Shown here piece after piece: positions 9,683 to 15,600 of a stretch of DNA of 64,000 nucleotides (positions within the stretch are counted from its first letter, which is position 1; each line of letters starts with the position of its first letter). This DNA is from a virus (Duplodnaviria > Heunggongvirae > Uroviricota > Caudoviricetes), in the IMG/VR virus record IMGVR_UViG_2718218360_000008, one strand, 5' to 3'. The position numbers were made by a program.

Positions 9683-12600
9683 TGAATTTTATAACCCAGA
9701 ACGGGCGTCCAGAAATGACGCCTTTTTTATTGCAGAAAAGCGAGAGGTAATTATGCGTAAACTTTATGCCGCCATTTTGTCCGCAGCCATCTGTCTGGCC
9801 GTATCCGGCGCGCCTGCATGGGCGTCTGAGCAGCAGGCCACGCTGAGCGCGGGGTATCTTCATGCCCGGACGAGCGCTCCCGGTAGCGATAATCTTAACG
9901 GGATTAACGTGAAATACCGTTATGAGTTTACGGACACACTGGGGCTGGTGACGTCATTCAGCTATGCAGGAGACAGGAATCGCCAGCTTACCCGTTACAG
10001 CGATACCCGCTGGCATGAAGATTCCGTGCGTAACCGCTGGTTCAGCGTGATGGCGGGGCCCTCTGTGCGCGTGAATGAATGGTTCAGCGCGTATGCGATG
10101 GCGGGCGTGGCTTACAGCCGTGTGTCGACTTTCTCCGGGGATTATCTCCGCGTAACTGACAACAAGGGGAAAACGCACGATGTGCTGACCGGAAGTGATG
10201 ACGGTCGCCACAGCAACACGTCTCTGGCGTGGGGAGCTGGCGTGCAGTTTAACCCGACCGAATCCGTGGCCATTGATATTGCTTATGAAGGCTCCGGCAG
10301 TGGCGACTGGCGCACTGACGGTTTCATCGTGGGTGTCGGTTATAAGTTCTGATTAGCCAGGTAACACAGTGTTATGACAGCCCGCCGGTTCAGGCGGGCT
10401 TTTTTGTGGGGTGAATATGGCAGTAAAGATTTCAGGTGTGCTGAAAGACGGCACAGGAAAACCGGTAGAGAACTGCACCATTCAACTGAAAGCCAGACGT
10501 AACAGCGCCACGGTGGTGGTGAACACGGTGGCCTCTGAAAATCCGGATGAAGCCGGTCGTTACAGCATGGACGTTGAGTACGGTCAGTACAGCGTCATTC
10601 TGTTGGTGGAAGGATTCCCGCCGTCACATGCCGGGACCATCACCGTGTATGAAGATTCCCGACCCGGTACGCTGAATGATTTTCTCGGTGCCATGACGGA
10701 GGATGACGTCCGTCCGGAGGCACTGCGTCGTTTTGAACTGATGGTGGAAGAAGCGGCGCGTCACGCTGAGGAGGCGAAGAAGAATGCCGGAGAGGCGGAG
10801 ACGTCAGCGAGGAATGCCGGCATATCAGCCAGTCAGGCAGAAGAGAGCGCGGCAAATGCTGACACTTCAGCAGGGGAGGCATCGGAGTCAGCCCGGCAGG
10901 CGGCAGAAAGTGCAGCCGCTGCAAAGCAGTCAGAGGAGGCGTCCTCGTCCTCGGCTTCTGCGGCCGCTCAAAAAGCCAGTGAGTCATCACAAAGTGCAGC
11001 AGAAGCTGAATTGTCAAGAAAGACGGCAGAAAGTGCAGCCGGTAATGCAGCCAGGGATGCAACGACCGCAACAGAAAAAGCCCGGGAGTCAGCAGAAAGC
11101 GCACAGTCAGCGGAACAAAGCAGGATAGCGGCGGAAGAAGCCGTAAACCGAATCCCCACCGTGGTGGGACCTCCCGGGCCAAAGGGGGAACAGGGGCCCG
11201 CGGGTCCTCAGGGGCCGAAGGGTGATAAGGGAGAGCGCGGTGACACCGGCCCTGTCGGGGCAACCGGCGAACGGGGACCGGCAGGTGATGCTGGTCCGGC
11301 AGGCCCGCAGGGGCCGAAAGGTGACAGGGGAGAGCGGGGAGAGACCGGTCTGACGGGAAATGCAGGTCCACAGGGTCCAAAGGGAGATACCGGTGCGGCA
11401 GGCCCGGCAGGCCCACAGGGACCGAAAGGAGAAACAGGTGCGGCTGGCCCGGTGGGGGCAACCGGACCTCAGGGACCGAAGGGCGACCCGGGGGAGACAC
11501 AAATACGGTTCCGTCTGGGGCCGGGAAACATTATTGAGACAAACAGCCATGGCTGGTTCCCGGATACAGATGGCGCACTCATCACCGGACTGACCTTTCT
11601 TGACCCCAAAGATACCACACGGGTTCAGGGTTTTTTTCAGCATTTGCAGGTCAGGTTTGGTGACGGGCCGTGGCAGGATGTTAAGGGGCTGGATGAAGTG
11701 GGCAGTGATACAGGCAGAACAGGAGAATGACATGAACGTACTAAAAAAACTTATGCAGCGTCTGTGCGGTTGCGGAAAGCATGATGACCGTGAACATGGG
11801 GAGTTACTTACAGCACAACTGCGTCTGGGACCGGCAGACATTCTGGAGTCCGATGAGAATGGCATTATCCCGGAGCAGGACAGGGTAATCACGCAGGTGG
11901 TGATACTGGATGCGGATAAAAAGCAGATACAGTGCGTGGTAAGACCGCTGCAAATCCTGCGTGCTGACGGGAGGTGGGAAAATATTGGCGGAATGAAATA
12001 GCCGACAGCTTCACAAAAACCGGAGTCCGGCTCCGGTTTTTGTTGTCATGTCCGGTGGATGTTTGTTAGGACCGCTATGGTTTATCGGCTGCCGTTCTGG
12101 CGCTGATTGCCGCAGGTGCTTCTGCGCCTGAAATCCTCGACCAGTTTCTGGATGAAAAGGAAGGTAACCACACCACGGCATACCGTGATGGTGCGGGTAT
12201 CTGGACCATCTGCCGGGCGCCATCATGGTGGATGGTAAGCCTGTATTCCTGGCATGAAGCTGTCGAAGGAAAAATGCGACCGGGTTAACGCTATCGAACG
12301 GATAAGGCGCTGGCATGGGTGGAGAAAAACATCAAAGTGCCGCTGACCGAACCCCAGAAAGCGGGGATCGCGTCATTCTGCCGTAAACATTGGTCCCGGT
12401 AAGTGTTTCCCGTCGACGTTTTACAGACGAATTAATGCAGGTGATCGAAAAGGTGCCTGCGAAGCGATTCGCTGGTGGATTAAGGACGGCGGCAGAGACT
12501 GCCGTATTCGCTCAAACAACTGCTACGGTCAGGTCTCACGGCGTGACCAGGAGAGCGCGCTGGCGTGCTGGGGAATTGACAGATAAGCAGAATATTTTGC

Positions 12601-15600
12601 TGAAAAATGCGGTTTGCTCACACGGGCGGATAACACGAAATCCTGCGAACTGGCCAAAACCTGAGTGATATAAAAGTAAAACCCCGTTTGTTAGCCAGCA
12701 GGGGGTTTTGTGTTTCCTGACTCCGGAAAAGTCAAAGGAGAAAGTGTGTTTGATTTTAGCAAACTGATTCGGAGATTGAGTGATGGCTGAAAAATTATCC
12801 ACCTGGAAGTTCATTCTTATCTGGCTGGTGTTTGTGATTATGGTCTTCCGGTTATTTCATCGGTCAGATACGCTGGTGGTGAAATGAACCGCGTACTGTC
12901 GTGGTCATCATTGCCCTGCTGGTGGCCTGTGGTGCGCTTAGTCTGGGGGCTGAATCATTACCGTGATAACGCCATCACCTACAAAGCGCAGCGCGATAAA
13001 AAAGCCAAGGAGCTGGAGCTGGCAAACGCAACCCATTACTGATATGCAGGTGCGCCAGCGCGATGTTGCTGCGCTCGATGCAAATACTCAAGGGAATTAG
13101 CTGATGCGAGAGCTGAAAATGAAACTCTGCGTGCTGATGTTGCCGCTGGTCGTAAGCGCCTGCGGATCAACGCCACCTGCTCCGGTACCGTGCGTGAAGC
13201 CACCGGCACCTCCGGCGTGGATAATGCAACCGGCCCCCGACTGGCAGACACCCGCTGAACGGGATTATTTCATCCTCAGAGAACGGTTGATGACAATGCA
13301 GAAGCAGCTGGAAGGGGCACAGGACTATATCCGCACTCAGTGCCTGAACTAAGTTTTGCGGATGCGCCGTATCGTCGCTGTATTCCCTCATTAACAGAGA
13401 CCGCAGCCCGACAGGGAGACTCCTCTGCGCGAGTGTGCGGGGATAATCAAAAACGATACACACCGGGGTTTACCGCGTTAACGGAGCGCGGCGTTGTCCC
13501 CTCATAGTCGCTGGTCCGGTGCGATGGTGGAAGAAACCGGACTACATTACAAATGATAACCATTATCATTTTGCGGGTCCTCCTGGTGGGGTGGGCCTGA
13601 ACACGGGGCGGGCGGCGCGGAAAAAGGCGCATTTTTTGATTTTTATGGCACCATCACCACCAGTGTAAGTTATTGATATATAGAAAAATAAAATTTTTAG
13701 TGTCGAATCTGGTTGTTTTTTGTTCATCACTGGTGTGTGTTTACATAATTTTCAGGGGGAGTTATGGATCGTGAATTAAAAAATCTGCATCTGAATATTT
13801 CCCAACTGGCCCGCATTATCCGGTGCTCATCGACAGACTGTTGCGGCTCGGGTAAAAAACATAAGCCCAGCCGGTGGTCATGAGAGCAATCTCAAACTGT
13901 ACCGACTGACAGATATCCTTGCCGAGCTGATGAAAGCTCCTCTGCCTGTAGATAACGAGGAAATGGATCCTCATGCGCGTAAAGCATGGTACCAGTCAGA
14001 ACGTGACCGACTGAAATTTGAGCAGGAAACTGGTCAGCTTGTGCCAGTCAGTGATGTCAGGCGGTCCTTTTCTGTCGTGGTGAAAGCGATAGTTCAGGTA
14101 CTGGAAACCTGGCCTGACCGGCTGGAGAGGGACAGGGGGTGGACCGCATCACAACTGAATGAAGTACAGATTGTGGTTGATGAGATCCGCGACACACTGG
14201 AAAAGGCAGTCATTGACTGTTGTGATGAGGCCGATATGTGAATCAGGTGAACGAGAGCCATAGCCGCGCATCCGATATCTGGCGCGAAGTGGCCTCGCTG
14301 TTTCGCCCACCCAGCCGGTTACCAGTAGCGGAAGCCATCAGGCGTTATATGCGGGTTCCACGGGGAGCCAATACTTCCGGTCCGTGGGAGTCATCGCTGA
14401 CGCCCTATATGATTGACCCCATTAATACATTATCAGCCCGTGAATATGACGCGGTGGTGTTTGTGGGACCTGCGCGAACCGGGAAAACCGAAGGGCTGAT
14501 TGATGGCTGGATTGTGTACGGCATCATCTGTGATCCGGCGGATATGCTGGTGGTGCAGATGACTGAGACGAAGGCGCGTGAGCATTCCAGAACGCGTCTT
14601 TCCAGGACGTTTCGCCACAGTCCGGAGGTCAGCAAGCGCCTCAGTCCTTCCCGTAATGACAACAACGTCCACGATAAAATGTTTCTTGACGGCTCCTTCC
14701 TGAAGATTGGCTGGCCGTCGATCACCGTCTTTTCCTCTTCGGATTACCGTCGTGTGGCGCTGACGGATTATGACCGTTTCCCTGAAAACGTGGACGGGGA
14801 AGGGGATGCCTTCACGCTGGCCTCAAAGCGTACCACCACCTTTATGTCCTCGGGGATGACCCTGGTCGAGAGTTCACCGGGGCGGGATATCACCGATACC
14901 AAATGGCGTTGTGGTGGCGCACATGAGGCACCGCCAACAACGGGTATCCTGTCACTGTATAACCGGGGAGACCGCCGCCGGTGGTACTGGCCGTGTCCGC
15001 ACTGCGGGGAATATTTTCAGCCGGTGATGGATAACATGACCGGATACCGGAATAACCCGGATTTTGTGGCTGCCGGTCAGGCTGCCCGTCTGATGTGTCC
15101 GCATTGTCGCGGGCTGATTGCCCCTGAGCAGAAACGCGAACTGAATAACCAGGGGATCTGGCTTCGTGAAGGTGAACGGGCGGCGGCGGACGGCAGTATC
15201 ACCGGAACGCCACGAAACTCCCGGATTGCGTCATTTGGATGGAGGGGCCAGCTGCGGCGTTTCAGACCTGGGAACAACTGATTTTTAAACTGCTGGCGGC
15301 AGAAGAAGAGTATGAGCGAACCGGCAGTGAAGAGACCCTGAAAGCGGTGGTGAACACCGATATCGGACGACCCTATCTGCCCCGTTCAGCCACGGAACAG
15401 CGTAAAAGTGAACTGCTTGAACAGCGTGCCGAGCCGTTTCCCCGGCGATCTGTGCCGGATGGTGTGCGTTTTATTGAGGCAACGGTTGACGTACAGGGCG
15501 GTAAAAATCGCCGTTTTGTTGTGCAGATCACCGGATACGGAGAGCAGGGGGAACGCTGGATTGTTGATCGCTACAACATCCGGCATTCACTGCGCTGCAG

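Follow-up and report, generated by a model that had tools for sequence, protein, structure and literature searches.

Lysis cassettes of the phage 21 and Shiga toxin (Stx) phage type, as in 933W, comprise a class II holin S, a signal-anchor-release (SAR) endolysin R, and Rz with an embedded Rz1. Escherichia coli K-12 retains lysis remnants in its cryptic prophages, with essD-rrrD-rzpD/rzoD in DLP12, ydfQ-rzpQ in Qin, and a further remnant in Rac. We examined a lysis segment of this family in a 64,000-nt stretch of Caudoviricetes DNA (IMG/VR record IMGVR_UViG_2718218360_000008; hereafter the window), which is a lambdoid prophage cluster at the ompW site of an E. coli O157:H7-like strain. The segment at 12072-13352 holds an endolysin remnant (R'), a spacer, and an Rz remnant with embedded Rz1 (Rz'/Rz1'); an intact counterpart lies at 60621-61920. 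An earlier note had described the former as a decayed lysis cassette marking the junction between two phage units. Apart from errors, it is a normal lysis segment of the phage-21/Stx-phage type in a lambdoid late region of the O111-E2863 type, and we consider it likely (probability about 0.72) that its dense insertions and deletions (indels) are consensus errors that arose in a multi-copy repeat where reads were mixed or coverage was poor.

Private indels in the lysis segment and beyond

The R' remnant (12072-12586, plus strand) lacks the first 14 nt of the gene, leaving it without the ATG plus the next four codons, and no holin lies upstream. Against the O111 E2863 R allele (lysozyme WP_000087709), 12072-12650 shows 0 substitutions and only five one-base deletions, at 12216, 12245, 12300/1, 12381, and 12386. 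When the five bases are put back, a full open reading frame (ORF) extends from residue 6 to the stop. The intact comparator R in the third prophage of the window (60621-61154, plus strand, 177 aa) is a different allele, and each of the five R' deletions hits a position that distinguishes the E2863 allele from the 60621 allele. From ~12650 on, the sequence takes the allele type of 60648 and TW14359.

With family membership defined as a Pfam domain score above the gathering score, intact R scores 86.2 bits and reconstructed R' 86.1 bits against PF00959 Phage_lysozyme (cut-off 22.3; both E 3e-24). The Glu-x8-Asp-x5-Thr catalytic spacing is the motif of T4/P21-type lysozymes, and inspection of both alleles' translations found this arrangement as EGNHTTAYRDGAGIWT. 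The N-terminus of the R translation is Gly/Ala-rich (YGLSAAVLALIAAGASA) and, judged from its sequence, is probably of the SAR type, for which a weakly hydrophobic transmembrane segment rich in Gly/Ala and a partner pinholin are characteristic; relatives carry a class II holin upstream, and R' has none. As written, R' is unfit as a functional gene, its truncation and five frameshifts leaving stops in all three frames across 12072-12592.

The R-Rz spacer that follows (12587-12883, plus strand) contains a hairpin at 12678-12712 and a small hydrophobic ORF at 12783-12887, and bears private indels, present in this assembly only, at 12654, 12669, ~12695-12702, 12771/12776, and 12844. The spacer ORF is frameshifted relative to 61353-61451, where R and Rz are separated by a hairpin and, after it, a conserved hydrophobic ORF of 32 aa. 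The Rz' i-spanin remnant (12884-13352, plus strand; embedded Rz1' start at 13119) has private indels at 12900, 12945, 13032, 13081/2, and 13251, with homology kept and frames broken. Its intact comparators are a 155-aa Rz (61453-61920, plus strand; PF03245 E 3e-50) and a 56-aa Rz1 read from MKLCVLM in the +1 frame of Rz (61688-61858, plus strand; PF06085 E 2e-21), the domain pair and frame relation of a two-component spanin, whose Rz1 is a lipoprotein with a lipobox Cys. All three domains, Phage_lysozyme, Rz, and Rz1, are found by Pfam in the remnant once reconstructed as well as in the intact copy.

The added C at 13251 joins the Rz1 frame to the Rz C-terminus, creating an 82-aa ORF (13104-13352) that matches both PF06085 and PF03245. 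Among RefSeq genomes, none of the 5,008 places homologous to this one carries the C. A PacBio assembly from the National Collection of Type Cultures (NCTC; GCA_900449115.1) has an added G one base from the 13251 site that yields an identical 82-aa protein, and neither the added C nor the added G occurs in any RefSeq complete genome. We read the fusion ORF in these two assemblies as the mark of a shared error-prone context, with a rare natural variant as the alternative. The error zone tails off over 13353-13900 (plus strand), with private one-base indels at 13690 in an A-run and at 13810, where CC becomes CCC; the latter insertion disrupts a DUF1441 small-terminase-like gene starting at 13765.

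That the R and Rz remnants differ densely from the intact versions, and more so than elsewhere, had been noticed before and was confirmed here. Local alignment of 12085-13800 with 60648-62369 gave 46 substitutions and 19 indel events; the 46 substitutions and 18 of the indel events (17 of these single-base) fall inside 12085-13352, the remaining event lies at 13690, and past 13252 hardly any difference between the two copies is left. The 46 substitutions are allelic and reflect the difference between two ordinary R alleles, since the E2863 allele shows none. Three-way alignments assign ~17 one-base indels in 12216-13251, along with two more at 13690 and 13810, to this copy alone, compared with ~1 private substitution (13008). 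This amounts to ~17 indels per 1,036 bp vs 0.71 private indels per kb in 14042-29447 (Poisson P ~8e-18), and no private indels were found in 1-8697 or in 29447-40298. A 2.2-kb query matched up to 29 places per genome, and neither the lesions nor any subset of them were shared with related genomes among 5,426 complete E. coli genomes and extra reference loci from other genomes; the extra loci show the changes at 13690, 13810, 15234, 16254, 20438, and 23133 to be private. The best match to 12640-13360 among 7,367 places is 97.7%, not above the value for the window's own intact copy.

At seven of the 11-12 private deletions in this zone, the column is one where reference alleles differ (A/T, G/T, G/T, T/C, C/T, C/T, and C/A). 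With polymorphic columns at 9.4%, the binomial probability of this coincidence is ~3e-5 if the deletions are placed most parsimoniously and 1.3e-3 if they are placed by MAFFT. Homopolymers hold no excess of the deleted bases (4 of 11 in runs of at least 2, vs 46% expected), and 5 of 7 insertions lengthen short runs. A pure homopolymer error signature was rejected for the deletions of this hot zone and holds for the background deletions at 14-29.4 kb. The earlier note had proposed homopolymer placement as the check for sequencing error; an error signature is indeed the better reading, without the run enrichment of deletions that the check envisaged.

Similar lesions occur elsewhere in the assembly. 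Against the O111 E2863 prfC prophage, most 500-bp bins of 14042-29447 are substitution-free, yet this region has 11 private one-base deletions, at 15234, 16254, 20438, 23133, 24842, 27012, 27907, 28325, 29137, 29195, and 29333, of which 7 are in runs of at least 4 (vs 8% expected). They disrupt gpJ copy 2, the tape-measure gene, and, through the deletion at 15234, the large terminase. A further private one-base deletion, at 63120, interrupts the large terminase of the third prophage, so that both terminase genes of the window carry a frameshift. In gpJ copy 1, the alleles of 8697-9723 switch back and forth from one site to the next between the types of the BB24-1 ydfJ prophage and of O111 E2863, no database allele exceeds 99.3%, and the frameshifting deletions at 8823 and 9272 both fall on sites distinguishing the two types (A/T, C/T). 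This stretch looks like a consensus from mixed reads; in copy 2, by contrast, gpJ changes type cleanly, between 29304 and 29447. The source genome is absent from the RefSeq complete set, which would be compatible with an assembly excluded for quality.

The joint and its prophage surroundings

The last gene of the upstream unit encodes an 89-aa tail-fiber C-terminal-domain protein (11732-12001, plus strand; Pfam PF06820 Phage_fiber_C, E 1e-36). It is followed by a conserved post-tail-fiber segment (12002-12071, plus strand) that is the same as in E2863 and TW14359 up to ...GTTAGGA. The earlier note had the two tail-fiber copies of the window share this sequence and then diverge, copy 1 into an endolysin without its start region and copy 2 into an nleG locus, and this is what we observe. 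The copies part after ...GATGTTTGTTA(G/T)GA at 12071/34436. Past 34436, copy 2 runs into a DUF1076/NleG gene, as in BB24-1; past 12071, copy 1 runs into CCGCTATGG (CCGCTATGGTTTATCGG), which is nucleotide 15 of the 534-nt E2863 lysozyme coding sequence, at the point where E2863 and TW14359 read ATGTTCAG (nleG7 side). The joint between the tail-fiber module end and nucleotide 15 of R (12071-12072) is blunt, without usable homology. The motif AGGAA is present near the joint in both parents (TTAGGAATG after the tail fiber, GCAGGAAACTCCGC in R), and the window reads TTAGGACCGC at 12064-12075, as expected of a microhomology joint short of four bases.

The post-tail-fiber segment ends 3 nt beyond the divergence point of all lambdoid tail-fiber modules and contains a GC-rich hairpin, spotted by eye, followed by a T-run (CCGGAGTCCGGCTCCGGTTTTT); a promoter and terminator scan of 11700-13900 called nothing, this hairpin included. 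Damage beginning upstream of the joint, considered from the comparison of 12002-12056 with copy 2, was rejected, the stretch being identical to the E2863/TW14359 allele. No place covering the joint was found in the 5,426 complete E. coli genomes, and exact searches for it in GTDB representatives, Joint Genome Institute (JGI) metagenome contigs, and IMG/VR contigs gave no match. E2863-type DNA flanks the joint on both sides, as late-region end (9724-12071) and late-region start (12072 onwards), and in E2863 the distance from the R start to the tail-fiber-module end is 22,377 bp. Since this spacing equals the 'period' of the window, a looped or false assembly path through one prophage fits, and an assembly-graph loop through the late region of one prophage is a possible source of the joint. 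A true deletion between mosaic tandem prophages would look the same, and we judge the chances of a true deletion joint between tandem prophages and of a false join to be about even.

The window begins with a tail region from gpG to the tail fiber (1-12071), followed by a late region (12072-34436) that starts within R, continues with terminase, head, and tail, and closes with the second tail fiber. After 34436 come the NleG (DUF1076) gene, a DUF4765 gene, an insertion sequence remnant, and a partial ompW, ending at ~40391, and then the third prophage, from its integrase (40446) through the lysis genes (60621-61920) to a terminase. By type, 1-8697 corresponds to the BB24-1 ydfJ prophage (2 substitutions, 0 indels) and 29447-40298 to the BB24-1 ompW prophage (2 substitutions), and 9724-12071 has a single site differing from the O111 E2863 prfC prophage. 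Self-BLAST and a repeat search pair 1120-12072 with 23497-34437 and 12085-15432 with 60648-64000. The latter pair, the cos-proximal repeats, is separated by 48,568 bp, which makes a lambda-sized cos-to-cos interval with the partial-ompW attachment junction of the tandem prophages inside it. The order NleG-DUF4765-ompW'-integrase occurs in only 1 of the 5,426 genomes (YB14-1), and O157:H7 strains do carry tandem prophages at ompW (YB14-1, TW14359). The large DUF4765 gene after the NleG gene (35231-38618, minus strand) is broken into two ORFs; the break is annotated as a frameshift in BB24-1 and YB14-1 too and, being shared, is probably real.

Two other accounts of the window were rejected. A recent 22.4-kb tandem duplication, in its simple form, does not fit two tail copies that are 97% alike and of different origins; their apparent gpJ switch points also differ (at least 8760 vs the equivalent of 6942-7085). 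Nor is the window the ambiguity-code-rich CP-933O region of the 2001 EDL933 sequence: EDL933 was never among the best matches, and the resequenced EDL933 ompW-region prophage, which is CP-933O (PMC9144400), is organized differently, with an HK97-type head, paa, and nleG7.

Origin of the indels

We favor an artefact because the indels are private, outnumber private substitutions by ~17:1, and include deletions on paralogue-differing sites. The indels come without substitutions, the flanks are clean, and the lesions, private to one assembly, are concentrated in multi-copy repeats and coincide with paralogue differences at the seven zone deletions and at both gpJ deletions. Reads of several paralogous R/Rz cassettes were probably mixed, or coverage was poor, or both; this module, with up to ~29 places in O157:H7 genomes, is the most repeated one that they carry. 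Where alleles competed at a site, a base would have been dropped from the consensus, or an ambiguity letter removed later, and at other sites short runs would have grown or shrunk by one base. The assembly has the same problem in milder form across the whole E2863-type segment (12072-29447), with allele mixture in gpJ.

Several points weigh against this explanation. The technical cause of the errors is one that we infer. The other R/Rz copy (60621-61920) and the DNA just upstream of the joint are clean, so repeat status alone is insufficient, and the error zone is confined to one side of the joint. The R consensus keeps the E2863 allele at all other ~42 differing sites, so a simple 50:50 read mixture is a poor fit. 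The added G beside 13251 in the NCTC PacBio assembly, with its same 82-aa protein, could be a natural variant, and the removal of ambiguity letters leaves the insertions unexplained.

Such removal, on top of a mixed consensus, might be proposed as the main cause of the deletions, with International Union of Pure and Applied Chemistry (IUPAC) letters (W, K, Y, M) at two-allele sites stripped during data handling to leave one-base 'deletions'. The seven polymorphic-site deletions and the two gpJ deletions are each at two-allele sites, the window is composed of A, C, G, and T only, and old O157 assemblies contain thousands of ambiguity codes in prophage repeats, with 2,413 non-N codes in the 2001 EDL933 sequence (PMC4132626). 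We hold this to be unlikely, given that 7 insertions and the deletions at non-polymorphic sites are left over, that the window is not the resequenced CP-933O, and that there is no sign of letters having been removed. A genuine remnant in decay seems to us distinctly unlikely as well. Here, a deletion between tandem prophages would have fused the tail-fiber end to codon 5 of R, with loss of the holin, early genes, and integrase, and the useless R'-Rz' would then have gathered frameshifts. The joint does resemble an illegitimate deletion joint, the tandem ompW prophages of YB14-1 and TW14359 are real, an R' with neither holin nor start codon would escape selection, and curated O157 genomes often contain phage genes with frameshifts (for example, pseudogenes of portal, gpJ, and DUF4765 in BB24-1 and EDL933). 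However, base substitutions are roughly ten times as frequent as indels in E. coli mutation spectra, and the remnant has ~17 private indels to ~1 private substitution, with 515 nt of R' free of any substitution relative to a database allele. The deletions on paralogue-polymorphic sites also argue against decay, as does the finding that not one indel is common to any other genome. Flank divergence from other strains is at most 2e-4; as the flanks differ by ~2 substitutions in 9-11 kb, neutral decay would predict ~0.1-0.2 changes per 1 kb, and with flanking DNA so close to that of other O157:H7 strains there would have been too little time for this much of it. Substitutions alongside indels and lesions shared by relatives, the features of a decayed pseudogene, were not found. 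What survives of the decayed cassette originally described is a 5'-truncated R with Rz/Rz1 homologues at a unit joint, non-functional as written; 'decayed' is probably the wrong word for a sequence with allelic substitutions, private indels, and flanks near-identical to other strains.

Real localized mutagenesis would require the joint to have been repaired by error-prone synthesis (break-induced replication or of the DNA polymerase IV (Pol IV) type), producing a one-sided shower of +1/-1 frameshifts over ~1.2-1.7 kb from the breakpoint. The cluster begins 144 nt past the joint, is one-sided, consists of nearly pure frameshifts, and thins with distance (13251, 13690, 13810), all of which agree with such a process. 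It is nonetheless hard to reconcile with frameshift errors far from any joint in the same assembly or with the gpJ allele mixture, it does not predict the coincidence with paralogue polymorphism, and we know of no report of a frameshift shower at prophage joints. We therefore give very little credence to this process, or to the view that the joint and all indels are real and arose by error-prone repair synthesis after an illegitimate rearrangement. Were all the indels real, bacteria would here have their own version of the mutation clusters associated with breakpoints, and only then would the case be worth pursuing.

If consensus errors are the true cause, single bases cannot be trusted across roughly 8.7-29.4 kb of the window, a span that takes in the broken terminase, tape-measure, and gpJ genes. 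Any call of a pseudogene or of a 'defective prophage' in this span, as well as the apparent 22.4-kb repeat structure, would then need reads behind it before being taken as biology. As for the lysis genes, they are textbook, and the main value of the case would be as a warning. A correct observation was made on an ordinary element, and its unusual side is most likely not real.

Comparison with O157:H7 assemblies and known lysis cassettes

Base-level problems of this kind have been documented for O157:H7 prophage repeats (PMC4132626), and the 2001 EDL933 sequence had >6,000 ambiguous calls (Latif et al. 2014, PMC4132626). The window resembles these O157:H7 consensus errors in that multi-copy lambdoid modules show mixed alleles and frameshifts in essential phage genes, with no support from other genomes. 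Unlike that case, the window is not the ompW-region prophage of EDL933.

As in the K-12 cryptic prophages, lysis genes are stranded here without a complete phage and beside rearrangement joints. The K-12 remnants are common to many strains, whereas that of the window is private to one assembly and differs by indels only.

In contrast to the cassettes of phage 21 and 933W, the copy at 12072 has neither holin nor start codon, is interrupted by one-base indels, and is preceded by a tail-fiber module instead of Q-S. In its coding content, the resemblance to phage 21 and 933W is close: R belongs to PF00959, with the E-x8-D-x5-T motif and a Gly/Ala-rich N-terminus, and Rz belongs to PF03245, with an Rz1 of PF06085 embedded in the +1 frame. 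In the relatives, these genes stand in the order holin-R-(spacer)-Rz/Rz1-cos-terminase.

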